From a virus (lineage: Duplodnaviria; Heunggongvirae; Uroviricota; Caudoviricetes): 64,000 nt of DNA. Shown piece after piece: positions 20,713-64,000 of the stretch (its first letter is position 1; every line of letters starts with the position of its first letter). The notes under the pieces are model-generated. The model had not been told where the DNA came from, ran no database searches, and saw only the letters and a list, made by a program, of their open reading frames with translations. Location of the stretch: positions 33,091 through 97,090 of IMG/VR virus record IMGVR_UViG_3300045993_000281. One strand, given 5' to 3'. Both the position numbers and the translations under genes were made by a program.

Positions 20713-22923
20713 TCATAGTCGTGTTACCGTGGTCGAAGGGCCGGTTGTAATTATCGTTTGATGCACTGTGCCAGCATCTCTACTATTATTGGTATCATTA
20801 ATAACTGCAGGATTACCCTGGACTAGCCCATTAATGAGCGCCAATTCAGACAATCTTAGTAGTTCTGGAGACAGCTCAGTACGAACTGCTACCGCCAGTT
20901 CTGCAGGTGTCATATTAAATAGTCCTTGTAGAGCAACATACATTTGATAAAGTTGCACTTCTGTCAGCGGCGTGAACACTGTTACTGACATGTCAGAAGT
21001 AGACGCGTTCTGAGAGGCAGTCAATGTTCCCTGTATTAGGGTAGAGGCTACGTTAGCGTTTATAATGCTAGTATTCGCAGCCCCTAGACTTTGCAGGATT
21101 GCAGCTATTGCAACAGAGCCTGATACGATAATCGTATCTGTGGCGGATGTTACGCTAGCGCTGCCTGAAATGCCAACGCCAGCAGATATGGATACACCTC
21201 CCTTCGATTGGACTGAAACAATCGTTCCGGCAAGCAATAACGTCGAAGCTATCGAGGACGTTTGCTTTGCACTTACAATAGTCATGCCGCCCGTTATGGC
21301 CGCAGCACTGGCAATGCTAGATGTATTTGCCGCTTGTGTAGCTGCAACTGTCCCTGCACTGCCACTTGCAACACTTGCCGAGATACTTGATGTGTTGGCC
21401 GCAGCAACCCTTACGATGGAACCCGCAACAGAAACTCCAGAGTTAACAACTGAGGTGTTCTTTTGTTGCAGCGAGGACATACCGCCTTGCACCGCATTTG
21501 CAGCGTTGATGACAGAGGTATTAGCCGTTTGTGTTGCAGCCATTCCGCCACTTATGACGTTTGAGCCAGTGATCGCAGTTGTGTTCGCATTTTGGGTTCT
21601 AGCTTCAGTGCCACTAATAGCATTTGCAGCAGCTATGGCAGAGCTGTTTGCAGCTTGTGTCGCTGCCACTGTCCCTGCTGTGCCTGTAAAGACAGATGCG
21701 TTTATGACCGATGTGTTTGCGACTTGAGTTGCCGCTTCTGTTCCACTAATGGCGTTCGCAGAGTTGATTACGGAAGCGTTCTTGGCTTGCGTTGAGGCTT
21801 CTGTTCCACTAATGGCATTAGCTGAATTGATTACAGAAGTGTTAGCACCCTGTGTAGCTGTTATCGTTGCTGTGAGACCTGGACTCGCTACTGTCGCATT
21901 TATGACAGAAGTGTTTGCGGCTTGTGTTGCAGCTTCTGTTCCACTTATAGCATTCGCAGAATTAATGACCGCTGTGTTCGCAGCTTGTGTTGCAGCCTCA
22001 GCGCCACTGATAGCGTTAGCAGAGTTGATTACTGATGTGTTAGCAGCCTGTGTCGATGCTACTGCACCTGAAGCACCAGACGAAGGGATGCTAAATATTA
22101 CAATCGATGAGTTGTAAGTGCCAGAGCCCGCCCACGTCCAACCGCCTGTTTGTGCTGCCGTAGCGTATACTACCTTATAACTGGAATTGCCGCAGGCGTG
22201 TGTCGCGTTGTCCGCCGTAGTAGCTATTGCTGAGAACCCCGTTGTCGCTGGAGATGACAACGCACTGATTCCGCTACCACCGTCGTCAAGGACGATTTGG
22301 GCAATAACAAGGGCATCAGCTTGTGTATTACTGACCGATGGCGTCGTTGCAGACGTTGCGGTTAATCCTTCGTTCGTGCTGTGAACGTCCAATACGCCCG
22401 TAACCGCAAGTGAAAACTCGCTGATCTCTGCCTCTGCATAACTACTAGCAGCGAAATTAACCGTAGCGCTCTCTGTACCACCTGCTGGACTTGCCTTGTA
22501 GAAAGTACCTGTTAGGTGATAAAAGGTGCCAGTTTGGTTTACGCCAGCGGCAGCTTCTGCAACAGACCAACCAGCAGGGGTTGCTATGGCAGTAGGGAAT
22601 GCGGCCTGGGTTAGTCTGACTGTGAGAACAACGAGATTTCCCGCCGTTACGCCAGCCAGAGATGGAGCAATTGACGCCACATTGTCTGCGTATAGCTGTG
22701 TAGATTTTTGAACGAATACAATGCCACTCTTAGCAGTGATCGCACTGGTTTGTGCAGCCTGTGTTCGCGCTACCGTACCTGACAAAGATAGTGTAGCCGC
22801 CACAACAGACGTGTTCTTAGTTTGGGTAGAAGCAATAGTGCCAAGGGCTGCTCCCCCCGATATGTCGAGGTTGATATCAAACGTGCCAGCACCATTGTCT
22901 ACTAATTTGATATCAAAGGCCAT
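20713..22923 (-). CDS. Fiber-like structural protein with ~14 tandem 21-aa repeats
   Basis: 736 aa. The central region is built of ...ATQAANTSVINSANAISGTEA... units repeated many times with small variations, flanked by distinct N- and C-terminal domains. Confidence 0.6.
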   Translation of the reverse strand: MAFDIKLVDNGAGTFDINLDISGGAALGTIASTQTKNTSVVAATLSLSGTVARTQAAQTSAITAKSGIVFVQKSTQLYADNVASIAPSLAGVTAGNLVVLTVRLTQAAFPTAIATPAGWSVAEAAAGVNQTGTFYHLTGTFYKASPAGGTESATVNFAASSYAEAEISEFSLAVTGVLDVHSTNEGLTATSATTPSVSNTQADALVIAQIVLDDGGSGISALSSPATTGFSAIATTADNATHACGNSSYKVVYATAAQTGGWTWAGSGTYNSSIVIFSIPSSGASGAVASTQAANTSVINSANAISGAEAATQAANTAVINSANAISGTEAATQAANTSVINATVASPGLTATITATQGANTSVINSANAISGTEASTQAKNASVINSANAISGTEAATQVANTSVINASVFTGTAGTVAATQAANSSAIAAANAISGTEARTQNANTTAITGSNVISGGMAATQTANTSVINAANAVQGGMSSLQQKNTSVVNSGVSVAGSIVRVAAANTSSISASVASGSAGTVAATQAANTSSIASAAAITGGMTIVSAKQTSSIASTLLLAGTIVSVQSKGGVSISAGVGISGSASVTSATDTIIVSGSVAIAAILQSLGAANTSIINANVASTLIQGTLTASQNASTSDMSVTVFTPLTEVQLYQMYVALQGLFNMTPAELAVAVRTELSPELLRLSELALINGLVQGNPAVINDTNNSRDAGTVHQTIITTGPSTTVTRL
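21246..22101 (-). repeat. Intragenic tandem repeat (~63-bp period) encoding the 21-aa units of the fiber-like protein
   Basis: The repeated peptide units map to this DNA segment. Ala-rich artefact ORFs on the plus strand (21065-21727, 21749-22117) are a by-product. Confidence 0.7.
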
Positions 22924-33068: not shown

Positions 33069-33345
33069 AAATTACACCGACACCCATGTCCATCCCTAAT
33101 TCGCCTATTAATTCGAATTTAAGACAGTGAGTTACTTTACCACACACACCTATTTTTGTTGGTGGCGTTGTTTGCGTCCCTTCAGGATACTGACTATGTA
33201 TCGTAGCGGTTATAGAGTCCCCAGGTAGCATATAAATAGGGTCTCCAAAATCGTAACGCTTTATATTTATCGGGCGTATTACAGGCGCGTTATCACCATT
33301 ATTTAATGCAAAGTCCGTCCATTTGCCTAATACTATTTCGCTCAT
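33010..33345 (-). CDS. Hypothetical protein
   Basis: 111-aa ORF; its 5' end overlaps the upstream gene. Confidence 0.4.
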   Translation of the reverse strand: MSEIVLGKWTDFALNNGDNAPVIRPINIKRYDFGDPIYMLPGDSITATIHSQYPEGTQTTPPTKIGVCGKVTHCLKFELIGELGMDMGVGVIFGMEKSNVVHKDVQGVSGG

Positions 33346-38300: not shown

Positions 38301-38861
38301 TTACCCCGCGCTGAGTGTAGCTATCTCAGCTGAGAGTTCTTTAAGCATGTTCACTGAGGCTAACTTTACTAGCGCCGGATGCCCATGCTGTAATACTTGT
38401 AACAGTAATTCTTTTTCTTGCAGGTACACTTTGGCAAAATTAGGGTCATTCGCAACGATATCACTTGTGTTACTGATTAGATCAGCTAGTTTGATCGTCG
38501 CCCCCCATTTAGAACTATGCGATAGATGCGCCCTATCCATGGCCTTTCTAGCGGCACGATTTCCATGCTCTGGAGTAGACACATCAGTTACTTCCGACAC
38601 TAACATGCTAACGTTTCTTCCAAATTTCGAACTGATTTGGAGTAACGTTACAGACGTATCTTCTACTAGGTCATGGAAGAGACCGCCGATAATTATATCT
38701 TCGCGAAGTTCTTCGCTGATATCGTCATGAAGCGTCTTATTGAGAATCGTGGCAACCTCTAACGGATGGACGGCGTAAGGCTCCCCTGTGAACTTCCTTT
38801 TCTGGCTTCCGTGCGCTGCTATCATGAAACTGATCGCGCCCAACATTCTTTCACTTACCAT
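38301..38861 (-). CDS. Small alarmone hydrolase ((p)ppGpp hydrolase; HD domain of the RelA/SpoT family)
   Basis: AAHGSQKRKFTGEPYAVHPLEVATIL...IIGGLFHDLVEDT matches the RelA/SpoT HD hydrolase signature. 186 aa with no synthetase domain. Confidence 0.8.
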   Translation of the reverse strand: MVSERMLGAISFMIAAHGSQKRKFTGEPYAVHPLEVATILNKTLHDDISEELREDIIIGGLFHDLVEDTSVTLLQISSKFGRNVSMLVSEVTDVSTPEHGNRAARKAMDRAHLSHSSKWGATIKLADLISNTSDIVANDPNFAKVYLQEKELLLQVLQHGHPALVKLASVNMLKELSAEIATLSAG

Positions 38862-41430: not shown

Positions 41431-41506
41431 TGGCAGCCGGTGATGGATTCGAACCACCGCATAATGGGATCAAAACCCACGGCCTTAACCGCTTGGCTAA
41501 CCGGCT
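41431..41506 (-). tRNA. tRNA-Gln (anticodon UUG)
   Basis: Cloverleaf with a 7-bp acceptor stem, D-loop AGCCAAGCGGTTAAGGC, anticodon loop TTTTGAT, T-loop GGTTCGAATCC, and a 3' ACCA-less CCA end encoded. Confidence 0.8.
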
Positions 41507-41577
41507 ATTGATTGGTGGAGGCCTTTCACCCCCAGGTATGAACAGAACTGTGATATTCTGAGCACATCTTTACAACT

Positions 41578-41653
41578 TGGTAAAGTGTACGGGATTCGAA
41601 CCCGTGATGCTGCCTTGAAAGGGCAGAGACTTAGGCCTCTTGTCGAACACTTT
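41578..41653 (-). tRNA. tRNA-Glu (anticodon UUC)
   Basis: Acceptor AAAGTGT/ACACTTT, D-loop containing AGAGGCC, anticodon stem-loop CTGCC-CTTTCAA-GGCAG, T-arm ACGGGTTCGAATCCCGT, CCA end. Confidence 0.75.
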
Positions 41654-41892
41654 ATTTGTTAATAACAGCTCTAGGCATGTGGTCAAACAGGACTTGTCCT
41701 GCTCTTGTTGGAAACCAAACACGGTGCGATTGATAACTTTGCGTACCGTACTTTACAAAACGACATGAGGCAACGAATGTAAATTCGGACGCCCAATGAT
41801 ATTCGGTTAGTAACCAGAGCAACGCGTCTTTATGTTCTTCTGCCGCATACAATTCAATTTCTCGTCGGACTTTCATGTCAAGCCTCTCATGT

Positions 41893-41967
41893 TGGTGGTT
41901 GTGGATAGAATCGAACTATCGGCTAACGGCTTATCGGGCCGCTACTCTACCGCTGAGTTACACAACC
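41893..41967 (-). tRNA. tRNA-Ile (anticodon GAU)
   Basis: Acceptor GGTTGTG/CACAACC, anticodon stem-loop GCGGC-CCGATAA-GCCGT, T-arm GATAGTTCGATTCTATC, CCA end. Confidence 0.7.
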
Positions 41968-41971
41968 TTGT

Positions 41972-42047
41972 TGGTGGATCAGGTTGGAATCGAACCAACG
42001 ACCCTCTCGCTACCTTCGCGAGGCTCTACCTGCTGAGCTACTGACCC
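41972..42047 (-). tRNA. tRNA of uncertain isotype (atypical anticodon loop GAAGGTA)
   Basis: Acceptor GGGTCAG/CTGATCC (one G-U pair), D-arm GCTCAGCAGGTAGAGC, T-arm GTTGGTTCGATTCCAAC, CCA end. The best anticodon stem, CTCGC/GCGAG, leaves a loop GAAGGTA that lacks U33. Confidence 0.55.
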
Positions 42048-43971: not shown

Positions 43972-44175
43972 TTATATTATGCGCTTACCATCTGCGCCGT
44001 AGTATTTGGGGCATGTCCAGAAGCCCTGTGGTGTTCGCCCATCAAGCATGTCGAGGAGCGTTGTTGGAGCCTGTATCCAATGCAACCCACGAAGCCCACA
44101 ATTACTACATGTGTGGGCTTCGTATTGCAATTTCTTCGCAGTCTCACGGTTCTTGAAACGCTGTTTACGGTTCAT
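43972..44175 (-). CDS. Small zinc-ribbon-like protein
   Basis: 67 aa with CSNCG...CPKY. Confidence 0.4.
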   Translation of the reverse strand: MNRKQRFKNRETAKKLQYEAHTCSNCGLRGLHWIQAPTTLLDMLDGRTPQGFWTCPKYYGADGKRII

Positions 44176-45587
44176 TGTATGGCAGCGTACCGTGGTGAGT
44201 TAATAACACTCCACATCATGCCTTCTGGTGTCAATGACTCATCGTCGCAAGCCAAGATCGACTTCATGATAGCTGGAGAGAATCCTGAAACCAACATGAC
44301 ACCTTGTTCGTTGGCAGTAGCAGGAACGTTATTATACGCACCATTCAGATTCCAAAACACGATGGTCGGTGGGGTGTAACCTGCTGTTTCATAACGCGCC
44401 CGAATCATTTCCAACCCAGACTGGTTTCCACACTGATTGAACTGCATGTCGCTTAGAATCAGTAACACTTTGGGCATCTGCTCCTGTGTTGCACCCGCTG
44501 AAATAGTACGGCTTAAGAGCAAGTTGAATGCGGACGTAATATCCGTGGTCATCCCCCAAGGGCAATTTTGCAACTGCATACGACGTTCGTCTAGCGTGCC
44601 TACCAGTTTGATCATTGAAGGTGTTTCGCTGAACGTAATGATCTCGTCCTTGAAAGTCCCCTGCTGACGTTCGGAAATGTACAATCCGAGAGCCAGCGCA
44701 ATGTCCATGCAACTTGCATTTCCACCGGCTTTTGCACTAGACATGCTGCCGCTGACGTCTACCATTGGAATCATGCCACTGCTACCTTCCATGTAATTCG
44801 GAAGTGCAGCCCATTGCGCTTCAGCTGTCACAATGTCGCCATTCCTAAGTCCGACAATTACGTCGTGTGGAAAGATAGCTGCGGCATTAACTTTAGTCTC
44901 GCCGGTAGCCAATCCCTTCTGCCATTCTTCATAGCGGGTTGCCTGATGCTTCTTGAAGGCCTTTTGATAGGCTTTGGACGCGATGGATGGAACGTGAGAG
45001 AAGTTTATGTCATCCCATTTACGGGCACACATTTGCTGCTCGACCGTTTTGCTGAGTGACGCGATGGTCTTGCGGTATTCCTTTGGGGACATGCCGAGCC
45101 CTTCACGCAACGCCACAGCTACTCTACCCTTGCGTGGCATCCATTTGGCACATAAGGCGTCTCCATTGCTGAGACCAGATTTTACCAGCGTCACACTGAT
45201 TGGCATCAGGCCTTCTGAGATCGTAGTGATCTTTTCAGAGACTACGCGTTCCGCAGTTATCGCCAGCACATCATCCCAACGACCATATTCTGGGATATGT
45301 GGGATAAAACGATTAACGGCATGCGGGTCGACACGTTGTAGCAAGTTAAGACAGTCGCGAAAGACCTTGCGTTCGCCTGCACCGCCACGGACATCGCGCG
45401 CCCAGAAAAGAATCTTCATAGCGTGGATGCCGTGTGCCTGGTAGGTGTTCACAAATTGTGAAGCAATGTTGGGGTTGTTGCGTGCTGCACCTATTCCAAA
45501 GAAGAGGTCAACTAATGAACTTGTGGTGCTTACCAACGCTTTCATGCCGTTGGTTGTTTCGGTTTCGTTTTCAGTTAAGAATGACAT
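44172..45587 (-). CDS. von Willebrand factor A (vWA) domain protein, possibly Ro60/TROVE-like
   Basis: 471 aa. MIPMVDVSGSMSS is a MIDAS-type motif (DxSxS) in a vWA-like context. A ~260-aa helical domain lies N-terminal to it. Confidence 0.55.
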   Translation of the reverse strand: MSFLTENETETTNGMKALVSTTSSLVDLFFGIGAARNNPNIASQFVNTYQAHGIHAMKILFWARDVRGGAGERKVFRDCLNLLQRVDPHAVNRFIPHIPEYGRWDDVLAITAERVVSEKITTISEGLMPISVTLVKSGLSNGDALCAKWMPRKGRVAVALREGLGMSPKEYRKTIASLSKTVEQQMCARKWDDINFSHVPSIASKAYQKAFKKHQATRYEEWQKGLATGETKVNAAAIFPHDVIVGLRNGDIVTAEAQWAALPNYMEGSSGMIPMVDVSGSMSSAKAGGNASCMDIALALGLYISERQQGTFKDEIITFSETPSMIKLVGTLDERRMQLQNCPWGMTTDITSAFNLLLSRTISAGATQEQMPKVLLILSDMQFNQCGNQSGLEMIRARYETAGYTPPTIVFWNLNGAYNNVPATANEQGVMLVSGFSPAIMKSILACDDESLTPEGMMWSVINSPRYAAIQ

Positions 45588-46145: not shown

Positions 46146-47627
46146 TCATTTGCTCTGAATTCGAGCACGTATTTCTGACAGTGTTTGAATTGGACCAATT
46201 CGGAAACCGTCTTCAAACACCACCTTTAACTGATCACCTGTTATGTCGCCATGTAGCGGTAATTCGTCTTCATAATAGTAGTCGCCATAGCCGTCTTTCA
46301 AAACCACAACACGACCTTTCTGCGACTTCTTTGTACCATCATCGGTCTTCGGATTCTTGAAGATATGGCGCTCCTGCCCATTTACTACAACTACTGTGGA
46401 CTTTAGAGCGAATCCGAAAGTGTCGCGTGTGTTGTACTGATACGTGAAGCTGCCAATACCAAACACACAATTGATCGATGCAAATCCCTTCAGGTACAGC
46501 AGATTGACGATCTGTCGGGCGCGATCGATAGTAATTGAATCACCATAGATTGCGCCGATATGGGAGTCCAATAGCTTAAATCCCTTGGGCGATAATGTAC
46601 CACCAAAGAGATCCCACAGACACTCAATAACGCCTTTGTAGACCATGGTGCCAGGTTGTGCATCAGAGTCACCGCAGATGATCTTGACAGGGTCGCCTGA
46701 ATCAGGACGTATAACCAACTTACCGTCACGCGCCATGATGTCATCCTTAAGTAGCGGCAGCACACGCCCGATAACATCCCACAAATCCCATGTATCGGAC
46801 ACAACAGAGAGGAAGCCTGTAGGGTACACGTCGTTAATCAGACGTTTAAAACTGACCATATCGTCTTCATACGCACACATGACGCTATGCTCAGTTGCCG
46901 GTATGGAAGTGCCGACCAACTCTTCGTCCACATTTGCACCATAGTACTGCTCTAAATACGGAATTGCAGGAACAGTATCAGTGCCCTGGAAGCTTGTCAA
47001 GTGTGCAGCGCCTGAACGGGATGCAGCAGAGATGCTTGACAGACCACGCATAGAGAAATCATGTCCCTGAAAAGGTACGAAATCCGTATTACCGACAGTC
47101 AACATTGCCGCTTCATTTAGTAACTGGCGATACTGATCAGCAATCGTTGCACTTGTGTAACCAAGCCACAATTCTGAAGACATAAGTGTCTCTAGATTGT
47201 TGGTCAACCAAGCGAATTTCTTGTCTGTATTATGCACGGTAAACGCAGGGCAGCGAATAGGGCAACGTGAGCCTTCGGGAAGTGCCTTAATCAACAGTGG
47301 GAGATATCCGAGAAAGTGCAAATCCCGTATGTGTTGTGTTTCGACATCTTTGATACCCAATGATTTGCCAACAGTACGTGCGTAGTCGTCCACGATGATA
47401 TCAATCGGAGCATCGAAGAAGTTATCATTGAAGTAATCAATCAGCCACTCTTGAATAAATCCCTGCAGTCCGAAGACCACGACCGCGTCGACTCCTGGCA
47501 AACGTGTTGATCTTGGTGTCCATGTCGAGTACACTACCTCTGTACCTGGTGGATACTGGACGCGGTGAAATAGTTTGTAGAAGTCGGTCAGACACATCGG
47601 ATTAAGCTTTTTCAAATTGTTCTCCAT
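46146..47627 (-). CDS. nadV: Nicotinamide phosphoribosyltransferase family protein (NadV/NAMPT-like; possibly a Namat-type enzyme)
   Basis: 493 aa. MCLTDFYKLFH matches (TDxYK), and VIRPDSGDPVKII matches the NAMPT RPDSGD motif. Confidence 0.8.
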   Translation of the reverse strand: MENNLKKLNPMCLTDFYKLFHRVQYPPGTEVVYSTWTPRSTRLPGVDAVVVFGLQGFIQEWLIDYFNDNFFDAPIDIIVDDYARTVGKSLGIKDVETQHIRDLHFLGYLPLLIKALPEGSRCPIRCPAFTVHNTDKKFAWLTNNLETLMSSELWLGYTSATIADQYRQLLNEAAMLTVGNTDFVPFQGHDFSMRGLSSISAASRSGAAHLTSFQGTDTVPAIPYLEQYYGANVDEELVGTSIPATEHSVMCAYEDDMVSFKRLINDVYPTGFLSVVSDTWDLWDVIGRVLPLLKDDIMARDGKLVIRPDSGDPVKIICGDSDAQPGTMVYKGVIECLWDLFGGTLSPKGFKLLDSHIGAIYGDSITIDRARQIVNLLYLKGFASINCVFGIGSFTYQYNTRDTFGFALKSTVVVVNGQERHIFKNPKTDDGTKKSQKGRVVVLKDGYGDYYYEDELPLHGDITGDQLKVVFEDGFRIGPIQTLSEIRARIQSK

Positions 47628-48369
47628 CTTTGGTGAATATGCGTTTTATACCTGCTTCACGCAGGATTGCGGTACCCTTTGAGAAGATGCCATGTGATAC
47701 GTATAGGCTTATCTCTCTGTCAGGCATTAATTTTGCGAGACTGATAAATGTTGCACCACCATCACAAATGTCGTCAACCATAAGAACAGATTGTCCTGGT
47801 GGTAATTCCGGCATTGCTGTCGTGATTATTTTACCAGTACTACGATCTCGTAACTTCATTGCGGATATTACAACTACCCCTGAAAGCAGAAGATCTTTGT
47901 ACCTTTCTTGAGCGCCTTCGTCAGGAAACACAACGATGTCTGCCATTACTGAACGCATGGCTTCCTGTATTTCTAGCCCTGGAGTGAGAATTAGGACATT
48001 CGATAAGCAGAGCCTAACGTAAGGAGGATTGTGTGGATCGAATACGGACACCTTATCGAACCCAATATCCTTAATTATCTGCAAGAATACAGACAACGCA
48101 AATGTTTCTGTATTACCTACTGCCTTGTCTTGCCTGGCATACGGGAGATATGGTAGGTGGAGATTAATCTCAACAAACGCATTTCTCTTTTTACCAAAGT
48201 CATACAATAACCTATACAACTGTGCTAAGTGCATCAATTCACCCTCGTGCTCAAACTTCCATTCTATGTTATAGCAGCGAGCATATTGATCAACTAGCAA
48301 GTGCCAAACTTGGCTTGTCTTGTCGGGAAACATTGTTACAGGTACGGGTGCGCCATCCAGATATAGCAT
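47602..48369 (-). CDS. Ribose-phosphate pyrophosphokinase family protein (PRPP synthetase-like; possibly an ADPR-PP synthetase)
   Basis: 255 aa with the PRTase motif LMVDDICDGGATF and a VSHGIFSKG loop. Its 3' end overlaps the downstream NAMPT gene. Confidence 0.8.
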   Translation of the reverse strand: MLYLDGAPVPVTMFPDKTSQVWHLLVDQYARCYNIEWKFEHEGELMHLAQLYRLLYDFGKKRNAFVEINLHLPYLPYARQDKAVGNTETFALSVFLQIIKDIGFDKVSVFDPHNPPYVRLCLSNVLILTPGLEIQEAMRSVMADIVVFPDEGAQERYKDLLLSGVVVISAMKLRDRSTGKIITTAMPELPPGQSVLMVDDICDGGATFISLAKLMPDREISLYVSHGIFSKGTAILREAGIKRIFTKDGEQFEKA

Positions 48370-50245: not shown

Positions 50246-51112
50246 TCAAATCCTTGATAACGTGTGCCTGCGATCTACCTTGAATCCTGCGGAGTGTTTA
50301 TGACCACCGCCGCCGAATCTTACTGCTATCTCACTTACATCTAATGCGTCTGGATTAGAGGAGTGAGACCTCAACCCAAAGTTCCTGTAGTCTTTCGTGT
50401 CATAATACAACGCGACAAAACGATTCGTTCGTGTCAATCTTTCTGCCACATCATTGAAGAACAGGCTAGGCGCGTTTACTAGGACAGTCGGATGATCGTC
50501 AATAACAGCATCTCTGAGCGAAGTTTCTGCTATTCTAGCACAATCCTGCTGCTGCTTCCTTTCGAGTAGTCCACCGTCTTTGATCATTCTAACCAGGCCA
50601 GCCTTAGTGACACTCATCATCTTGTCCCATACTTTGAATTCAAAATCTTGAAGTGTAACGTACGCCATTATTTCTTTGGTATACAGTAAGTTAAACTTCC
50701 ACAGATCGTAATCCTCTACATGCGCTAATACTTGCGGCATCTTTTTCGGCTTGCCCAGACTCAGTCTATGTGCCCATTGTACGTAATTCCATGCCAATAC
50801 AGCGCCGGAATGTTCTTGTGAGCTATGCTTCATGCTGAGTCCAGCAGTCTCCAAATCCCAAAGATCTTCCAACGCCGACTTGTGGTGATCAATGAGAGTG
50901 ACACTTTTGGCTGCAGAAAGAATGTCCTCTACTACGTTCCTTTTGTAGCTGAAATCCACTAGGAACACGTCCCTGTCAACTACATCTGGAACCTTGCCCT
51001 GATATACGCCTGGGTGATAATCATATGTATCTTTGTATTGGTTCCAGAAACACCATGCTGCACCAAAACCATCCGTACAGCCCTTGTGATAAATTACGAT
51101 CGGCTTGTTCAT
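50246..51112 (-). CDS. DHH-family phosphoesterase (NrnA-like nanoRNase/pAp phosphatase type)
   Basis: 288 aa with LVDFS..., VTLIDHHKS (DHH motif) and FGGGGHKHSAGF (DHHA1 GGGH motif). Confidence 0.75.
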   Translation of the reverse strand: MNKPIVIYHKGCTDGFGAAWCFWNQYKDTYDYHPGVYQGKVPDVVDRDVFLVDFSYKRNVVEDILSAAKSVTLIDHHKSALEDLWDLETAGLSMKHSSQEHSGAVLAWNYVQWAHRLSLGKPKKMPQVLAHVEDYDLWKFNLLYTKEIMAYVTLQDFEFKVWDKMMSVTKAGLVRMIKDGGLLERKQQQDCARIAETSLRDAVIDDHPTVLVNAPSLFFNDVAERLTRTNRFVALYYDTKDYRNFGLRSHSSNPDALDVSEIAVRFGGGGHKHSAGFKVDRRHTLSRI

Positions 51113-52893: not shown

Positions 52894-53207
52894 TTCAGTA
52901 GTCCGAAGTCATCACGTATCTTGCTGTCTATCAATGTATTTTCTATCTTGTAACGAGTGCTATCAAACCCATTTACTTTTGTTTCAGTAATGAAAAATCT
53001 AGTCCTATCTAAGACATCTTTGAACACCGTTCCACGAGTAGTGCAAAAGGTATCTATGGAATTTGTCATGTTCATGTTAAGAAGCCTTGCCAACCTGAAC
53101 CCGTGAAACTGGCAAATTTTCTCTAGCAAGTCTCTGAAATCAGGACTAATCGGTTTAAAGTTTACATGACACTCGAAGTACAATTTAGTCGTGTAATTAA
53201 TCCCCAT
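52890..53207 (-). CDS. Hypothetical protein
   Basis: 105-aa ORF. Confidence 0.4.
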   Translation of the reverse strand: MGINYTTKLYFECHVNFKPISPDFRDLLEKICQFHGFRLARLLNMNMTNSIDTFCTTRGTVFKDVLDRTRFFITETKVNGFDSTRYKIENTLIDSKIRDDFGLLK

Positions 53208-54163
53208 TAGAAGTCTCCTGGATCTCTGAAACCTGTTGCTCTTGCCATCCGAAAGGTATCCTTAGCACCGTGAGGAAAGTGGCGAAACTTGACATACGCC
53301 TTGTTCAGGTACTTATCCTGCTCATTCCAAATTGCCAGCCTTTCTGGATGTGTAAAGTTTCCTGGAGGAACGTTAGCTATCTTGCCACGAACATCTAAAA
53401 TAAACTTTCCGAGTGTCCCCGCAGGGATAAGCCCTTCAGCAGCCTTAGACCTCTTCGAAGTGCCAGTGTTGCTTCGGATATCGGGATTTATATTGTCAGT
53501 CGCTTCAATAAATCCAACGACTAGGCCCTCATCGTCCTCGAACCGCTTTAACTTGTAAATCAGACCTTCCTTGAAAGTTGCGCGATTCGGCGGTGTACCG
53601 TCACCTCCTTTGTACTTACCCAAGGGATTACGCATCATAATCCCCTCAAATCCCAATGCAAGTTGGTCTTCCTCATACTCAATCAGATCTTCGTAATTAG
53701 TGATCAGAGTATGTGGTATTGTATGAAATATATCTCGGCCATATGTTGACAACCCAGCGGCATTGAACTCTCGGACTCTATCTGATGCATACTGAAAACG
53801 TTTCTCAAAAGGTAACAGAATGATCTCAGGCGACGTCCAATCAAATAAATGATAGCCAATGTCATCTGCGGGCTGATCAAATGCGGTGACACTACTACTT
53901 GTAAGATTGAAGACATTAAATACGTTGGGCTCACCAACTATCAGTTCGCCATCGGAGTGATTTGCAAAACCGAACATATCCTGTACTTGATGAGAGCGCA
54001 AGATATTGTAGTCTCTCGACCTGACCTTATTGTCTTTCGTGCTGCCCCTTATACCATCGTATTTAGGGGAGCACGAAAGAGGATACCTAATACCCCTTGT
54101 GGGGTGGAAAAAATCGGGATTCTTTTTAGGATCATCCCTTGGTGATAGCATTACTCTGAACAT
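53207..54163 (-). CDS. ATP-dependent DNA ligase (small, phage-type)
   Basis: 318 aa. Motif I at residues ~33-39, SPKYDGIRGST (KxDGxR), in the same N-terminal position as the T7-type ligase lysine. Confidence 0.7.
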   Translation of the reverse strand: MFRVMLSPRDDPKKNPDFFHPTRGIRYPLSCSPKYDGIRGSTKDNKVRSRDYNILRSHQVQDMFGFANHSDGELIVGEPNVFNVFNLTSSSVTAFDQPADDIGYHLFDWTSPEIILLPFEKRFQYASDRVREFNAAGLSTYGRDIFHTIPHTLITNYEDLIEYEEDQLALGFEGIMMRNPLGKYKGGDGTPPNRATFKEGLIYKLKRFEDDEGLVVGFIEATDNINPDIRSNTGTSKRSKAAEGLIPAGTLGKFILDVRGKIANVPPGNFTHPERLAIWNEQDKYLNKAYVKFRHFPHGAKDTFRMARATGFRDPGDF

Positions 54164-57157: not shown

Positions 57158-57636
57158 TTGAACCTCAGTTGGTCTTTAGCTAGTTTTAAGCCAGACATCG
57201 CGAGTCGGATACAACTTGGGCATAACGAAATACTCTCGTGCTCGCCGCTATCCTTTAGATCGAACTTAGCTAAGAATTCAGGTTTGCCTCCGCACTCACC
57301 ACATTGCTCTGGCATCACCCAAGATTCATTCCCAATAGCTTCCGCGACATCTTCGGGCATGGCTACTGCTACGTTGAGAGCCTTGAGTTTATTATATACA
57401 GCCAACGAACTTCCTGAAACTATACCAGTCCAATGTCCATTCTTGAAATATTGATCACGCCATCTCTGCGCTACGGTACGAATGTCTTCACGTAGTTCAT
57501 CTTTGCAGCTTATGATCTTCATAGGCTCCTCTTGGTTAATTAAAAAGGGCAACCCGTAGGTCACCCTTTTGCTCTTACTTGATCGGACACGCACCAGTTG
57601 CACACTCATCACCACCTTCAAAGGCAGCAGATGCAA
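57154..57636 (-). CDS. Hypothetical Cys-containing protein
   Basis: ORF with CGECGG...CPSC. The annotated start overlaps the RNR gene, so an internal start (MKIISCKD...) is more likely. Confidence 0.4.
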   Translation of the reverse strand: MHLLPLKVVMSVQLVRVRSSKSKRVTYGLPFLINQEEPMKIISCKDELREDIRTVAQRWRDQYFKNGHWTGIVSGSSLAVYNKLKALNVAVAMPEDVAEAIGNESWVMPEQCGECGGKPEFLAKFDLKDSGEHESISLCPSCIRLAMSGLKLAKDQLRFK

Positions 57637-59494
57637 CAGATAATATGGGACGTGTTTTGGCTACTAATTCCTCGTATTGCGCTTGTGTAATTTCTTCGTA
57701 TGGCGCTTGCTTAAATCCGTGCTCTGAGTGGAGCAGGAACGATAAACTCTTATGATTATTTTTATAATGTTTCGCTAGGTAGTCTCTGATCCCTGGCAGT
57801 TCCTCTTGACGATAATATATCGTACAGGATACTGAGTTATCTGACCATACCTCTTGCAATCTCTTAATCTCGCCTAATTGGTCTAACGCAGTCATATCCT
57901 TCGCCAATTTAGTCCCAGCAGGGTAGGAGAAAGGAAAGCTTACAATCATGGAGCCGTAATCTTCAGTACCGTCCAAATTCAACTTGTACTCCATTGGATA
58001 GCCATGTTCTTTGCATATCTTGATTAGCGGATTCTCTGAAGCAATTGTAATACGGCGAATCATGTATTGTGCATAACCTGGATGTATTCCTGGGGTGATG
58101 CCTGGAAGCAATGATAGCGTACCTGATGGTTTTACGGTTGTGAGTTTAATGGATATTGCGAAACCATGGATCTCAGAATACCGTTTGTCGTAATCTCTTA
58201 ATTTTACATATGCGTCATCTAGCCATTTGTTTTGTTCCTTGCTGGCCATCTCAATCCCAGACATTCCAATGCCCATCCGCATATTCTGATGGACTATCTT
58301 GTCTGTTTCGGGGTGATGGCAGGGTAGCATTAACGAGTGCTTGCAGACACGGTACAAAAGCATTAAGACGTCGTCTAATTCTTCTTTTGATTTGATATTC
58401 GGGAGGAAAACCTCAGCGAGACAGCATGTTTCATACGGGGCTAGACTCTGTTCAGCGCATGGGTTATAGCCCATGACCTCTGGGTCAGGGTACTGCTCTT
58501 CGCCAAGTCTACCGATCTTGCGTGATAACCTCAGATTGATTAACCCGTATGGCTCGCCTTTGCCGCGATACCCATCCCAGAAGTATTCATGCAAGTCTCT
58601 AATGTCGTCACATGCTACACTGTTATTCGACATTCCGCGCCACTTTGGAAGTGTGCCTAAATCCCAGCGTTTCGCAAGCAAAAACTCAATATCATCACAA
58701 TCTCCTATTGCGAGTTGCGCTGACCTACGAACGTTCCCAGCCACAATGATATAGCCGATAATGTTCATAATATCAAGCGCATCTATGGGACGAATTTTAC
58801 GCCCACTACGCCTGATCAATATTTCCGAGATTTTTCCAATACCCCAGACAAGATCTTCTGGACCTGAGGCAACTCCTCCAAAGCTTTTAATTGGGGTCCC
58901 TTTACCTCGCACAACCTGTGTAGAGTATGTAAAAGTTCCCTTCTCTTTTCGTTCGCTAAGGAAAGCAGCTTTAAGCGTCTTCGCCAGGAATCTAACCCAT
59001 CCTTCTCGCGAATCTGGGATAATAAAGTCAGCTCCTCCGTGGTCAACTCTTGTAGGCGCTTTAAACCATTCGCGAACAGCTGGCAACTTCTCGACATGTT
59101 CCCTCTGTATATTGTAACCAACACCTGAACCTAGCGCTAGCATATCCATGCACCATGTGAATGGTACGATCGGATGATCTACGACTGTAAACGCACAGTT
59201 CTGTAAAGACGCTAACCCTAAACGGTCCACCGTCCTTGTACCCATTTGCCAAAGGAACCGTCCAGCGACGCTTCCCTTTAGTTGAAGTGAATACAGTCTA
59301 AGTCTTTCTTCTTCCTCGGTACTAAATCCTACACCCAATTGGTCTCTACAAGATTTTATCACTCTCTCGATTGTATCAGGAAATTCTTCTGTGGGCGACC
59401 CGTCAGGATCACTCTCATTAAACTTCCTGGAGTACGTTCTTTTATAAGTCAACAAACCTACTGTTGACCATGGTGTTTGTACTTGCGTTGACAT
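57575..59494 (-). CDS. nrdJ: Ribonucleotide reductase (class II-like; motif NPCAEQS)
   Basis: RNR active-site region ...GYNPCAEQSLAPYETCCLAEV; 640 aa from ATG 59494. The RNR family call is stronger than the class assignment. The ORF-track start at 59533 is a GTG; ATG at 59494 (MSTQVQ) has a GAGGA RBS and is preferred. C-terminal Cys pair GGDECATGACP. Confidence 0.7.
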   Translation of the reverse strand: MSTQVQTPWSTVGLLTYKRTYSRKFNESDPDGSPTEEFPDTIERVIKSCRDQLGVGFSTEEEERLRLYSLQLKGSVAGRFLWQMGTRTVDRLGLASLQNCAFTVVDHPIVPFTWCMDMLALGSGVGYNIQREHVEKLPAVREWFKAPTRVDHGGADFIIPDSREGWVRFLAKTLKAAFLSERKEKGTFTYSTQVVRGKGTPIKSFGGVASGPEDLVWGIGKISEILIRRSGRKIRPIDALDIMNIIGYIIVAGNVRRSAQLAIGDCDDIEFLLAKRWDLGTLPKWRGMSNNSVACDDIRDLHEYFWDGYRGKGEPYGLINLRLSRKIGRLGEEQYPDPEVMGYNPCAEQSLAPYETCCLAEVFLPNIKSKEELDDVLMLLYRVCKHSLMLPCHHPETDKIVHQNMRMGIGMSGIEMASKEQNKWLDDAYVKLRDYDKRYSEIHGFAISIKLTTVKPSGTLSLLPGITPGIHPGYAQYMIRRITIASENPLIKICKEHGYPMEYKLNLDGTEDYGSMIVSFPFSYPAGTKLAKDMTALDQLGEIKRLQEVWSDNSVSCTIYYRQEELPGIRDYLAKHYKNNHKSLSFLLHSEHGFKQAPYEEITQAQYEELVAKTRPILSVASAAFEGGDECATGACPIK

Positions 59495-59698
59495 TACTAT
59501 CCTCTGTTTTAATAATAACCATATAATGGCCACCCTGTGTTCGGATTATTTTAATCTTACATAATTACAAACTGGCAGTTAACAGTTTCCTCTGAATGCA
59601 CTTAGGAGCCCTACTACAAATATGCCTATAAAACACACTGCTATAAGCACAGCGCCTATTGTCATCCAGAATACCTGCTTATCATCCTGTTTACTCAT

Positions 59699-61345
59699 TT
59701 AAAATTCGCTCACTTGTGTATGCACTGGCTCGAATTGTTCCTCAGAGAGTGCAGTTAACCGTCCAGTCGCATGATTGTAGGTAGCGCCTGGCACCATCCC
59801 AGTAAGTCCTATTGTTCTGCTCTTCAGCACAGCCATAAGCAGGGTGTTCTTAACAAATTCGTCCGCAGCCAGCGAATTCCTCGCAAATGCAATAATGTCA
59901 AACGAAACTTGCTTTATACTACCACTACCACGAATATCATCTAGGCTTGGTAATCGTCCTTCTTCAAAGGACTTCCCGCCTGTCTGTACTTTTCGTAAGT
60001 GGCTAATCAAACCTATCCATGCATTGTGTCTCTTGACTACACGCAGGAGGTCATTCATTATTTTGTCAATTGCTTCGTTACCTGTCAAACCTTCAGCGCC
60101 CTCGCTCACCAGTATGGTAATGTGATCTATGACTAAGTATTTGCATCCCATGAGACACATGTACTCTAGCTGGGTGATGATAGATTCGTCTTTAATTGAG
60201 CCTTGATGGTCAAGGACTATTACACGATCATCGCCGAATACCTTGTCAAAACCAACCTTTAAATCTTCCTCGATAATCTCTTCATTGGCAGGATTCCGAT
60301 GGATCATCATCGCAGCGAGTTTAATTCCAGTCTCACCAGGAGACTCCTCTAAAGAAATAATACCAACCTTGTCGCCAGTTGTCTCGATAATGTGCAAGAC
60401 AATCTCACGAATCAGCGTGCTTTTCCCAGCACCCGTTCCGCTAATAAACAAAGCGATTTCACCGCCACGCATGCCCTTGACCTTAGAGTTCACACCTGCC
60501 ATACATGCAGGGTAAGGTACGCTTGGTGTGTTGTTTCTCTCTACAATCTGTTTCCAGATGTCCTCTTTAGAAATGATGCCTACAGGCGACCACTTCTCAG
60601 CGTCCCAGATGCACTGTAACAATGTCAGTCCATCCTTTTTCGTAAACACTTCGCTTGCGTCTTTGAACGGCATCTTGCAAAGTCTTACTTTGTCAATCCC
60701 TATAATCTTGATCGCTTTCTCGGTAGCTTCTGTACCCGCGTCATCCATATCAAAACATAGGACGACCTCCTCAAAGCTTCTTATCCAGTCGCGGTGTGGC
60801 AGCAATTCTTGCGTGCCCTTAGAACTGGGTAGCGATATTACAGGATAAAACTTACCATACTTATGAAACTGGGCTTGTGCAACTGTTAGTGCGTCAATTT
60901 CGCCCTCGGTTATTACTAACCGCTTCCCACCACCATTGAATAGGTCTCTTCCAAATAGGCCACCAGCTTTCCCAATCCAATTGAAAACTTTAGGTAACCT
61001 GCGCTGCTTGTAACCACCACCTGAATAGGGGTAATAATGGGAGTCTATCTTTCCATCTGAACCGTAACTCACCTTTACATTATAAAATTCACAAACATCT
61101 TTCTCAATCAGACGTTCTATAAATCCCCGAGAATGTAGGGCTTCGATCTCTGTCAAGCTTGTTTCCGACATATCCTGCACCTCGTCCCTTGGTATAAATA
61201 AAAAGTCCGCATCGTGGTCTTTCCTAAAGAATTTACTACAGCTGAAACAATAGCTGGTGCCTTCTTCATATAACCTACGAGCGTCAGATGAACCACAGCC
61301 TTTTACATCAAGACAGGGGAGGTTTGACTTTACTATCTTGCTCAT
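59699..61345 (-). CDS. Primase-helicase (T7 gp4-like)
   Basis: 548 aa, with three parts in order:
- N-terminal zinc ribbon CLDVKGCGSSDARRLYEEGTSYCFSC
- TOPRIM/primase LVITEGEIDALT
- DnaB-like helicase with Walker A ISGTGAGKST. Confidence 0.85.
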   Translation of the reverse strand: MSKIVKSNLPCLDVKGCGSSDARRLYEEGTSYCFSCSKFFRKDHDADFLFIPRDEVQDMSETSLTEIEALHSRGFIERLIEKDVCEFYNVKVSYGSDGKIDSHYYPYSGGGYKQRRLPKVFNWIGKAGGLFGRDLFNGGGKRLVITEGEIDALTVAQAQFHKYGKFYPVISLPSSKGTQELLPHRDWIRSFEEVVLCFDMDDAGTEATEKAIKIIGIDKVRLCKMPFKDASEVFTKKDGLTLLQCIWDAEKWSPVGIISKEDIWKQIVERNNTPSVPYPACMAGVNSKVKGMRGGEIALFISGTGAGKSTLIREIVLHIIETTGDKVGIISLEESPGETGIKLAAMMIHRNPANEEIIEEDLKVGFDKVFGDDRVIVLDHQGSIKDESIITQLEYMCLMGCKYLVIDHITILVSEGAEGLTGNEAIDKIMNDLLRVVKRHNAWIGLISHLRKVQTGGKSFEEGRLPSLDDIRGSGSIKQVSFDIIAFARNSLAADEFVKNTLLMAVLKSRTIGLTGMVPGATYNHATGRLTALSEEQFEPVHTQVSEF

Positions 61346-61529
61346 CGTCTTTCTTTATAGTGCCCCAAATGAGTCCCGCTACAAAAATTGAAGCTACCAT
61401 AATCAACAAGTAGTCCGCAGACTGCATATGCGAGAAGTTCATTGAATAAATACCCATACCTATCGCCACAAAGGACGCTAGGAACAGAATGATTACGACG
61501 AGTTCTTTCATGGTTTCCTTTTGGGGCAC
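61308..61529 (-). CDS. Small membrane protein
   Basis: 73 aa with two hydrophobic helices. Confidence 0.4.
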   Translation of the reverse strand: MPQKETMKELVVIILFLASFVAIGMGIYSMNFSHMQSADYLLIMVASIFVAGLIWGTIKKDDEQDSKVKPPLS

Positions 61530-61553: not shown

Positions 61554-63929
61554 TTAGATTATTGTTTTCTCTACCGTATACAACGATACTCCGTGACTAC
61601 ACAACAGACGCCACAAACCTATCGCGTACTGAATTGGCCACAACACATTCTCCTCTACCTTAGGCAAATCCGAATTCTGTCTTTGCACATAAAAGTTTTT
61701 AGAGGCGTGGTCATAAACAACCTCCAGCACCTTCGGGCATGTTTCACTGAAGTGCAGCGTCCAATTTGTGAAATCTAGCGCCAACTTCACTTGAGAGTAA
61801 CCTGCTGCTCTGAGTGCCCTTATAACTTCGGCCAATTCACCGGAATTACTTACAAGAACGGCTTGTGAACCTATCTTGTATTCTTTGAACTCCTCTTTGC
61901 CAAGACGTCCAGTCACGAGATAACGAACATACTCCGATTTGTGATACTTAAACATACTACGGAATCTCTCGTCTTCCTTAAGAAGAAGTGACATTATCCA
62001 TTTCTGTTTCGACGGAAACTCTTCCTGTATCAGCACCAGATTGTTCAACTCATCACCGGTCAAGATGGTGGGTTTAATGGTATAGTACTGCAGCAGTTCG
62101 AGAATATTAGCTTCGGTAGGCCTTTCGTACGCTAATGGCGGATTCTCCAGGAGTCGTTTGTAATTACCAAGCACCCACTTAGCCTCATCGTAGTCAAAGT
62201 TCTTCTTAAACGCCACGATACTGGAATTAGCGTCTACAGGTGGTTTGGCATTCTCTGCAATAAATCTCTCGAATCCGATCTGGCGGAGTTCGCCGAGCAA
62301 TTCTACCGAGTCAACTTTATACCGTAGTCCAACTGGAAGAAATACCAGTTGTTTTAGATTAGCGCTGTAGTCGCCTGAAAACGTCCTTACTTTTTCCAAA
62401 TTTACACTAATGCCATAGTACGCCAATTGAACAGCGATGTCCTCTACTGTTTTGTCCATCTCACCCTTGTCATGCCCGAACAGCAGTATATCGTCAACAA
62501 AGGAATAGCAGTCAACGGCATTTCGTAGCAAGTACGACATTACAATCGTGGACAGTGCATGCTCATAATTAGAGTCAATTGTGAGTTTGTCCAAACAACC
62601 GTTTGCAGTCATTGCTTTTCTGATCAAGGACAGTGCGCGTTGGCATCCGTCTCTTTGCTCTTCGTTGCAAAAATACATAACTGCGTCTTCTACTAGCTTG
62701 TAGGTAACCTTGTTAAAGAAGTCACTTAAATCAAAATACATGCAATGTTGGAACTTCCCACTAGCCTTAACACCAAGCTCCCTGTACAGGTTGTAGGTGT
62801 AGATATACGGTATTAGTCTCCCGTCATTGATGCGGCTACCAAGGTTGGACGTCGGTATATTGAGCAATCCATACAGCTTGTCTACACCTACTGCCATTAG
62901 AATGTTGTCGAAGTCCGACCGAAATTCCATAAGGCGGTTTCCTGCAAACTTCTCACCATTTTTGGGGACAAACCGTGAAGGCTTTATAGAGAACATCGTG
63001 TCCAGCGTCCGAACACTGTCCGTGAAACGTGAACGGAAGACTTGATATGCTGCGTCGTCAGTTGTCTCCAGCGCCTCAAACAGAAGCGCGGTGAAGTTAT
63101 CCTGATAGACGGAATAGCCCAAATGGTCGTACTGAATATGCTTAGAGATATTTGTGCGTAGTGAGGACACCACCCGTTTCAATTCTTTGTACGAGGCGTA
63201 TTTGGCATACGTCATGCCCAGCCCCAGCTGGTTCGCGTAGAACTCTGTCAAGTCCTTCGGCAAGTCGCCTACAAGACATGTGCCTTGTTCAACTAATCCG
63301 TACAACAGAAAACTAGGCTGTGACGTCATATTTTTGGGGTTGGAGTACACAACTATTCCAGTCTCAGGCTGTAAGTACTTTCCAATCAACTGTGAATCTT
63401 TTGCGTAGAACTTGTTTTCGTCAGATGATGAAACGAACTCCTTGACTTTGTTATTACCACCGACAATCTGATACTCGAATAGAATATCTTCCGCATCTTC
63501 GCCGGATACAAAGCTTTCTATTCTTTCCGCGCGTGTGTTTATTTCAAAATTAAACAACAATTTTGCGCTAGCACCGAACCGGTAACCGGATAACGACATG
63601 TCTTCAAGCTTTACTGCTTGTGATGACATTTGGTAGTCAGCATCACGATACCGATTAATGAAGTACTGAGTACCTTCATCCGTATCAATAGCCTTCCGGA
63701 CAGTCTGCGGCACAAGCCGGATTTGTTCGGTGGCGTGTCCCAGAATCTTGCAAGAGAACCGCTTAGCATTGTCTGCCAAGTACTTCTTGTAGAACCTTTC
63801 AATGTTATCCGTGAGATACACCACCAACTGAGCCGCGCTGGTTCTGCTGTGTATCTCGCGAGCCAACACTAGTGTCATCTTGATTTTCGAATCATTTATT
63901 GTTGCAGTTATCTTTTGCATTTTATTCAC
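61554..63929 (-). CDS. Reverse-transcriptase-like polymerase (791 aa) with large N- and C-terminal extensions
   Basis: RT motifs in canonical order at residues ~319-515:
- Motifs 1/2: RFVPKNGEKFAGNRLM, SDFDNILMAVGVDKL
- Motif A: MYFDLSDFFNKV
- Motif B': HALSTIVMSYLLRNAV (compare QG..SPLLANIYL)
- Motif C: YSFVDDILLFG (YxDD)
- Motif E-like: GISVNLEKVRTF (compare GLxLNxEKT). Confidence 0.75.
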   Translation of the reverse strand: MNKMQKITATINDSKIKMTLVLAREIHSRTSAAQLVVYLTDNIERFYKKYLADNAKRFSCKILGHATEQIRLVPQTVRKAIDTDEGTQYFINRYRDADYQMSSQAVKLEDMSLSGYRFGASAKLLFNFEINTRAERIESFVSGEDAEDILFEYQIVGGNNKVKEFVSSSDENKFYAKDSQLIGKYLQPETGIVVYSNPKNMTSQPSFLLYGLVEQGTCLVGDLPKDLTEFYANQLGLGMTYAKYASYKELKRVVSSLRTNISKHIQYDHLGYSVYQDNFTALLFEALETTDDAAYQVFRSRFTDSVRTLDTMFSIKPSRFVPKNGEKFAGNRLMEFRSDFDNILMAVGVDKLYGLLNIPTSNLGSRINDGRLIPYIYTYNLYRELGVKASGKFQHCMYFDLSDFFNKVTYKLVEDAVMYFCNEEQRDGCQRALSLIRKAMTANGCLDKLTIDSNYEHALSTIVMSYLLRNAVDCYSFVDDILLFGHDKGEMDKTVEDIAVQLAYYGISVNLEKVRTFSGDYSANLKQLVFLPVGLRYKVDSVELLGELRQIGFERFIAENAKPPVDANSSIVAFKKNFDYDEAKWVLGNYKRLLENPPLAYERPTEANILELLQYYTIKPTILTGDELNNLVLIQEEFPSKQKWIMSLLLKEDERFRSMFKYHKSEYVRYLVTGRLGKEEFKEYKIGSQAVLVSNSGELAEVIRALRAAGYSQVKLALDFTNWTLHFSETCPKVLEVVYDHASKNFYVQRQNSDLPKVEENVLWPIQYAIGLWRLLCSHGVSLYTVEKTII

Positions 63930-64000
63930 TTATATTTGATTTGCGTTGCCATACACATCATGTGTAGACGATCCTTGTGTTTCTGTGTTATTGGTTCTTT

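Follow-up and report, generated by a model that had tools for sequence, protein, structure and literature searches.

What would a reverse transcriptase (RT) be doing among the replication genes of a tailed phage? The question is raised by a 64,000-nucleotide (nt) stretch of a Caudoviricetes genome (IMG/VR record IMGVR_UViG_3300045993_000281, positions 33,091 to 97,090; hereafter the window), in which a complete RT-like open reading frame (ORF) of 791 amino acids (aa) lies on the minus strand at 61554..63929, with a GTG start and the stop codon inside these coordinates. A sequence-only reading of this stretch had placed the gene in the slot of the replicative DNA polymerase and proposed three roles for its product: a replicative or priming polymerase, an RT of the diversity-generating retroelement (DGR) or retron type, or a captured defence RT. 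The present analysis favours a different answer, held with little better than even confidence, in which the protein would be a catalytically intact, stand-alone DNA polymerase of RT fold and UG/Abi affinity, nearest to Class 1, that belongs to a very rare phage-only group and serves an accessory role in conflict.

The RT core and its nearest known enzymes

The set of RT motifs read from the sequence held up: motifs 1-7 occur in order, the Asp of motif A and both of those in YxDD are kept, and Pfam RVT_1 matches above its gathering score (32.6 bits vs a cut-off of 29.6). Translation confirmed the positions of motifs 1/2 (FVPKNGEKFAGNRLMEF, nt 62922-62972), motif A (CMYFDLSDFFNKV, nt 62706-62744) and motif C (YSFVDDILLFG, nt 62475-62507), and the motif B region is LTIDSNYEHALSTIVMSYLLRN. 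The GLxLNxEK-like element taken for motif E had to be relabelled, as GISVNLEK, with its conserved Lys, is motif 6/D and the equivalent of motif 7/E (primer-grip) is KQLVFLPVG at residues 526-534. By residue number, the core carries IQYDH (265-269), VPKNGEK..R of motifs 1/2 (321-332), PYIYTYN (374-380), YFDLSDFF of motif A (D400), LTIDSNYEH of the B region (449-457), FVDD of motif C (D479/D480), NLEK of motif D (K513) and the E-like KQLVFLP (526-532).

Conservation was assessed in an alignment of 19 sequences, in which the relatives are 14-48% identical to the window protein. Residues invariant in all 19 include K323, N324, R332, Y375, Y379, D400, F405, H457, D479, D480, K513, K526 and K641. 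The catalytic triad and the residues that bind deoxynucleoside triphosphates (dNTPs) are thus invariant, which points to purifying selection, and to judge from this conservation the RT-like enzyme is almost certainly active. An AlphaFold2 model built from the same alignment is confident for residues ~247-680 (predicted local distance difference test, pLDDT, 80-97) and poor at both termini, and it contains the fingers/palm fold; the conserved aspartates and the palm-like fold, two points on which the RT assignment had been said to hinge, both came out in its favour. The helical domain that follows the palm (residues 537-680), with the conserved motifs ILxLLQY and PSKQKWI, appears to stand where Class 1 UG/Abi polymerases have their thumb/alpha-Rep domain. 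The large terminal extensions noted earlier are also real: the N-terminal ~250 residues (1-246) and the last ~110 (681-791) occur in the close family only, and no fold or family was matched by the C-terminal tail.

Structure comparison scores (length superposed in brackets) were 16.8 (250) for a DGR RT, 16.4 (320) for AbiA, 16.0 (234) for a group II RT domain, 15.3 (325) for DRT6, 15.1 (324) for DRT4, 13.3 (316) for Abi-P2 and 12.4 (310) for AbiK. The longest superpositions were all with Class 1 Abi/DRT enzymes, the class in which an RT is fused to an alpha-helical repeat domain (PMC9226505). The top 15 Foldseek matches likewise consisted of Class 1 UG/Abi proteins only (DRT4, DRT6, AbiA, UG15, AbiK and Abi-P2), with E-values of 4e-9 to 7e-7 over 468-610 alignment columns (468-531 for DRT4, DRT6, AbiA and AbiK). 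When the profile of the 19-sequence alignment was compared with PDB sequences, DRT6 was the best match (E 2e-12), and Abi-P2 was matched (E 3.7e-10) in an alignment that spans both the RT and the C-terminal helical domain; over the PADLOC, NCBIfam and PDB-profile searches, the best UG/Abi matches (Drt5, Drt8, DRT6, Abi-P2 and AbiA) were weak (27-50 bits), with group II RTs close behind (E ~1e-9). A 6-sequence profile gave only marginal RT matches among the PDB sequences, the 19-sequence profile being the more informative.

The best PADLOC matches were to Drt5/UG16, Drt8/UG7, UG19-21, UG31-34, AbiA and a generic CRISPR-associated RT model, with maxima of 39 bits for the close family and 62 bits for a second tier of relatives described below; the alignments to UG19, Drt8 and UG34 reach into the helical domain. 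These searches against RT clades, which the sequence-only reading had proposed, mostly ranked UG/Abi models best, all of them far under the family cut-offs, and no curated threshold was reached for any defined DRT, UG or Abi group (Drt1-9, UG1-39, AbiA/K/P2; NCBIfam Drt3b, for example, gave 14.5 bits vs a cut-off of 350). Placed by profile and fold scores, the protein appears UG/Abi-like and closest to Class 1, and it is in no defined group. It has 10-14% sequence similarity to the Class 1 enzymes (AbiK, AbiA, Abi-P2, DRT4 = UG15 and DRT6 = UG12), to which it adds a ~250-aa N-terminal domain and a ~110-aa C-terminal tail, while its helical domain is shorter than theirs.

Insertion sites and relatives of the RT gene

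An identical RT protein is encoded on Logan contig SRR35489147_97066 (L001), which overlaps the window over 5973 nt with 0 mismatches and is therefore regarded as the same genome; it runs 9.9 kb past the window. The genes around the RT are, in order of transcription, a GIY-YIG endonuclease, the RT, a 73-aa ORF, a T7 gp4-like primase-helicase and a class II ribonucleotide reductase (RNR; Table 1). The RT is thus not encoded right after the primase-helicase, as had been stated, since it lies on the minus strand and is transcribed before it. Upstream of the RT, L001 carries a 625-aa family A DNA polymerase (PolA), a 5'-3' exonuclease, a 100-aa ORF and the free-standing GIY-YIG endonuclease gene (L001 9354-10004), which ends 4 nt inside the start of the RT gene. 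The earlier surmise that a conventional DNA polymerase could lie outside the window was therefore correct: PolA is found 6.4 kb beyond the window end (PF00476, 51.3 bits vs a cut-off of 34.3). Over its whole length it can be aligned with the polymerase of Roseobacter phage CRP-7 (E 1e-84), and the N-terminal DxE motif and the HDE motif are kept; exonuclease and polymerase motifs are both conserved in this T7-type enzyme.

By their primase-helicases, the closest cultured relatives of the window phage are CRP-7 (51% identity) and DSS3_VP1 (43%). In both, the module runs from PolA through small ORFs, the exonuclease and 0-1 small ORF to the primase-helicase, followed in DSS3_VP1 by the RNR, and neither an RT nor a homing endonuclease is present. 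Because both genes are missing from these modules, the endonuclease-RT block, possibly together with small flanking ORFs, is read as an insertion; on this comparison of gene order, the RT and the GIY-YIG endonuclease are inserted between the 5'-3' exonuclease and the primase-helicase. Replication of the phage genome, or its priming, by an RT-fold polymerase would suit a gene that lies in the replication module, beside the primase-helicase and co-oriented with it, and protein-primed synthesis could in principle prime genome ends. The RT gene shares module and direction with the T7 gp5-type family A polymerase; however, the two proteins differ in fold and family, the genome encodes an intact PolA, and CRP-7 and DSS3_VP1 have the same module with no RT. 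In addition, homologs in other phages lie at a distance from replication genes (one has Prs-like and NAMPT genes as neighbours, another, in phage phiR1-37, a head protease), and the extreme rarity of the family is ill-suited to a core replication function. The proposed place in the replicative polymerase slot is accordingly abandoned, and a replicase is considered a very improbable identity for this protein.

The sites occupied by homologs vary. On two contigs (L002 and L003), homolog P0005 lies between genes for a Prs-like phosphoribosyltransferase and NAMPT, with gaps of 0 and 18 nt; in the window, the same pair of genes is contiguous, without an RT between them, and the window NAMPT is 42% identical to that of the P0005 contig. 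The homolog on L004, an IMG/VR contig, follows a T7-like RNA polymerase gene, with PolA and an exonuclease elsewhere in the locus, and the homolog on L005 has an RNR-like sequence ~0.5 kb away and no primase-helicase in the interval. To judge from these loci, the RT gene moves between phage genomes as a single unit. An all-against-all BLAST comparison of flanking ORFs from 10 loci found no conserved partner gene. The GIY-YIG endonuclease was likewise rejected as a partner in function, since only the window genome has it next to the RT.

The surroundings of the gene also bear on the proposal of a classical retroelement RT, that is, one belonging to a DGR, a retron or a group II intron. Weak matches to hidden Markov models (HMMs) of group II maturases (36 bits) and of retrons speak for it; these scores, however, are far under curated cut-offs (33-36 bits vs 300 for the group II RT model TIGR04416, and at most 18 bits for retron HMMs), and RTs of retrons and DGRs are less than half as large as this protein. 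No direct repeats of at least 25 nt, and no repeat of the template/variable type expected of a DGR, were found in 16 kb around the RT gene, and the 64-kb window as a whole contains only unrelated tandem repeats within a single ORF of the structural region, besides a weak match of 44 nt whose two copies are 28 kb from each other. Rfam searches (9 kb at E-value level; the window and L001 at gathering level) returned only tRNAs and one chance match to a long non-coding RNA; neither the window nor L001 gave a match to an intron RNA or to msr or msd. Gaps on either side of the RT gene measure 0-42 nt in the window; taken with L002, the window shows only overlaps or gaps of 18-42 nt, and other loci at most ~160 nt. 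The flanks are too tight for a non-coding RNA (ncRNA) of DRT or retron type. The Rfam and repeat searches thus agree with the earlier remark that no template/variable repeat pair or retron RNA lies nearby, and the DGR or retron role suggested alongside it is dropped, a classical retroelement being the least probable of all the explanations considered and close to negligible.

Relatives of the RT are very few. A word-indexed search of 5.8 billion proteins returned five homologs (29-47% identity), and its repetition with the 19-sequence alignment returned no homologs beyond these; an exhaustive HMMER profile search of 1.84 billion cluster representatives yielded seven close members, with 13 proteins at E<1e-10 and 72 at E<1e-3. 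PHROGs holds no family for the RT, and tblastn against 50,697 phage records gave no match. The second tier consists of proteins of 540-840 aa (P0008-P0016 and others) whose motif set is collinear with that of the close family, namely IQY(D/N)H, VPKNxDK..R, PYIxEYN, D(I)SKFF, GLTIESNYQH, YVDD, NxxK, KxLVRLP, ILxxLQY and PSKxxFI. Relatives were found solely on phage-like or very short metagenomic contigs, and every context that could be judged was phage-like, with features such as co-directional small ORFs, an exonuclease, RNase H, RusA, a ClpP-type head protease, a tail-fibre gene and a topoisomerase. No relative of either tier was found in pattern scans of 185,579 bacterial and archaeal species genomes (one genome per species), nor was the family seen there in a bacterial defence-island, plasmid or prophage-hotspot setting. 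Class 1 enzymes occur on bacterial chromosomes, plasmids and prophage defence hotspots, whereas the window RT family occurs on lytic-type phages and, by the contexts available, is restricted to phages.

These distributions need to be weighed against the possibility of a bacterial defence RT that was recently captured and either rides along as inert cargo or, without alteration, serves the phage for abortive infection or superinfection exclusion. In its favour, the known polymerases that come closest are defence enzymes of bacteria and plasmids, prophages are known to carry Abi-P2 and other UG RTs (PMC9226505), and the adjacent homing endonuclease and varying insertion sites point to horizontal mobility. 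Neither tier has a bacterial homolog in the scanned genomes, however, and homologs that are 29-48% identical across unrelated lytic-type phage contigs imply long residence in phages; moreover, the conserved catalytic residues show that the gene is not inert, and the exclusion-module variant overlaps with the explanation favoured here. The suggestion of a captured defence RT therefore survives only in that the nearest relatives are UG/Abi defence RTs. Because the protein fits no defined group, has no bacterial homolog in the scanned genomes and is encoded by a gene whose GC content and codon usage are ordinary for the window phage genome, it is better regarded as a long-resident phage lineage, and recent capture is judged unlikely. 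Two findings had been named earlier as jointly telling against an unusual phage polymerase, a canonical DNA polymerase elsewhere in the genome and clear membership of a known defence clade; the first was found in PolA, and the second was not found.

The sole relative in a cultured phage is g096 of the Yersinia jumbo phage phiR1-37, a 690-aa protein annotated as hypothetical, and the literature searched contains no description of the RT family, nor of g096 as an RT. This protein represents the second tier, as a sister group: it matches the window RT collinearly (23% identity, pairwise E 1e-10), from IQYDH across the RT core to the C-terminal ILxxLQY/PSK motifs, but it is without the ~250-aa N-terminal domain and the C-terminal tail, and its helical insertion is much longer. 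In the record of that phage the gene stands alone, with a promoter and a terminator annotated for it, and it is located in the structural region of the jumbo phage, beside the head protease. Both phiR1-37 and phages of the Naomviridae, to which DSS3_VP1/PM1, relatives of the window primase-helicase, belong, reportedly have non-canonical DNA bases. There may be a link between the RT superfamily and phages with modified DNA, an idea that is offered as an impression only.

Proposed chemistry and role

Characterised Class 1 members make protein-primed, untemplated single-stranded DNA (ssDNA), using priming tyrosines at differing positions (PMC12783706). Because the nearest enzymes are untemplated and protein-primed, and because no template RNA is linked to the gene, synthesis of protein-linked ssDNA is the likeliest activity of the window RT, and an untemplated, protein-primed chemistry is by this analogy most likely. 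The RT would be expressed with the early/middle genes and would prime from its own tyrosine, as in its Class 1 relatives, the candidates being the invariant Y375 and Y379 in PYIYTYN; from there, dNTPs would be joined without a template, giving ssDNA linked to the protein. This product, or the enzyme itself, would most likely serve the phage in conflict, either by swamping or diverting host exonucleases or defences that sense ssDNA, or by excluding competing phages. Given the accessory, cassette-like distribution of the gene in virulent-type phages, a role in phage-host or phage-phage conflict is probably the one to favour. The tyrosine of IQY(D/N)H was also considered as a priming residue and was rejected, as several relatives have Phe in its place.

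The strongest competing explanation is a templated RT, which would copy an RNA encoded away from its own gene (a tRNA, a transcript of phage or host, or an ncRNA lying within a coding region) and whose functional product would be cDNA, in the manner of Class 2 DRTs (DRT2, DRT9, DRT10) or repair-type G2L4 RTs. Fold scores alone do not decide against such an enzyme, which is a real but minor possibility.

The preferred reading, a Class 1-like polymerase making untemplated DNA for use in conflict, has several points weighing against it. TM-scores are modest against Class 1 structures, at 0.22-0.30 when normalised to the length of the query and 0.28-0.45 to that of the target, the helical domain is short (~140 residues), and the likeness to every defined UG/Abi group is weak (NCBIfam Drt5, 28.7-37.9 bits vs a cut-off of 550). 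The scans of the species genomes relied on short peptide patterns, which distant bacterial homologs could escape, and an RNA template could sit inside a gene or elsewhere in the genome. That Y375 or Y379 may be the priming residue is a guess; Class 1 priming sites differ. The conflict role rests on analogy and on the accessory, mobile distribution of the gene.

UG/Abi and DRT polymerases are now studied as bacterial antivirals, with activities that include the synthesis of untemplated DNA, of de novo genes and of homopolymers. In the literature searched, UG27 (Class 2), which occurs in gut phages including crAss-like phages and is suspected of a non-defence or anti-defence role (PMC9226505), is the only phage-resident group described. 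UG27 and the window RT are both UG/Abi-lineage RTs resident in viral genomes; however, UG27 has three associated gene clusters and a conserved ncRNA, whereas neither a partner gene nor an ncRNA was found for the window RT family, and the UG27 HMM matched one homolog only, at 12 bits. If the preferred reading is true, a Class 1-like lineage confined to virulent-type phages, with a new N-terminal domain, no partner gene found and cassette-like shifts among insertion sites, would mean that phages also use UG/Abi chemistry.

A further and distinctly more tentative proposal is that lytic phages keep an ancient Abi-type polymerase lineage and use untemplated, protein-primed ssDNA offensively, as a decoy or sink that would knock out host exonucleases or immunity that senses ssDNA, or as a block to co-infection, with the polymerase travelling as a single-gene cassette, sometimes beside a homing endonuclease. 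Offensive ssDNA synthesis of this kind, if true, would be a counter-defence or inter-phage weapon built on de novo DNA synthesis. Being encoded in a culturable phage, phiR1-37 g096 offers a tractable route to the role of non-genomic DNA synthesis for a virus. With the idea of the RT as a phage replicase removed, the protein is left as a variant of the Abi/DRT polymerases that is new, very rare and confined to phages, and whose terminal domains are new as well.

Neighbouring and other genes of the window

Table 1. Domains of the RT-like protein, its neighbours and other genes, in window coordinates
Feature	Coordinates	Strand	Observations
RT, N-terminal extension, residues 1-246	63192..63929	-	beta-rich; close family only; 15-20% identity; no fold matched
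RT, fingers/palm core, residues 247-536	62322..63191	-	motifs; pLDDT 80-97; Foldseek
RT, alpha-helical post-palm domain, residues 537-680	61890..62321	-	~8 helices; model, Foldseek and profile alignments
RT, C-terminal tail, residues 681-791	61557..61889	-	small alpha/beta; close-family-specific; invariant W773; pLDDT mostly <70
SegE-like GIY-YIG homing endonuclease gene, 3' end	63926..64000	-	runs off window; PF19835, 65.3 bits
73-aa ORF between RT and primase-helicase	61308..61529	-	overlaps primase-helicase start
T7 gp4-like primase-helicase	59699..61345	-	phrog_239, 471 bits; downstream flank of insertion, outside RT system
Class II RNR	57575..59533
ATP-dependent DNA ligase	53207..54163	-
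ORF with weak DHH-family match	50246..51112	-
Prs-like phosphoribosyltransferase (NAD-salvage pair)	47602..48369	-	weak PF00156 match
NAMPT (NAD-salvage pair)	46146..47627	-	phrog_448, 623 bits
'RNA-binding protein'	44172..45587	-	phrog_850, 448 bits
tRNA cluster	41431..42047	-	four genes: Gln-TTG, Glu-TTC, Ile-GAT, Pro-AGG
HD_4 domain protein	38301..38861	-
736-aa ORF, structural region	20713..22923	-	three ~195-nt repeats and a nested 53-nt unit x6 at 21311..22077
1535-aa ORF	12680..17287	-	Mu F-like head-morphogenesis domain fused to T7-type RNA polymerase domain

The 73-aa ORF that follows the RT gene has two hydrophobic stretches, ELVVIILFLASFVAIGMGIYSM and YLLIMVASIFVAGLIWGTI, whose appearance by eye suggests putative transmembrane segments. 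Small membrane proteins are often the effectors of RT defence systems. No Pfam family matched the ORF over its cut-off, and it was not conserved beside RT homologs in the comparison of flanking ORFs across loci; it may be a passenger or a local partner of the RT. A scan for promoters and terminators gave promoters no better than those of shuffled sequence and nothing informative near the RT.

A gene like that of the SegE-type endonuclease is also present in the phage contig of the second-tier RT P0008, 6.6 kb from that RT. On L004, a protein with the N-terminal domain of dATP/dGTP diphosphohydrolase (PF18909) is encoded directly before PolA, at 14285-15064. A fifth tRNA of the window phage lies outside the window, between PolA and the exonuclease (L001 4700-4771).

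The 1535-aa ORF matches PF04233 at residues 144-248 (52.6 bits) and PF00940 at residues 993-1113 (36.2 bits; phrog_414), and its product may be an RNA polymerase packaged in the virion. Beside the window primase-helicase no separate gene for a T7-like RNA polymerase was noticed, in which respect CRP-7 differs. The repeat-bearing 736-aa ORF had no Pfam or PHROG match, and its codon usage was the most atypical among the genes compared.

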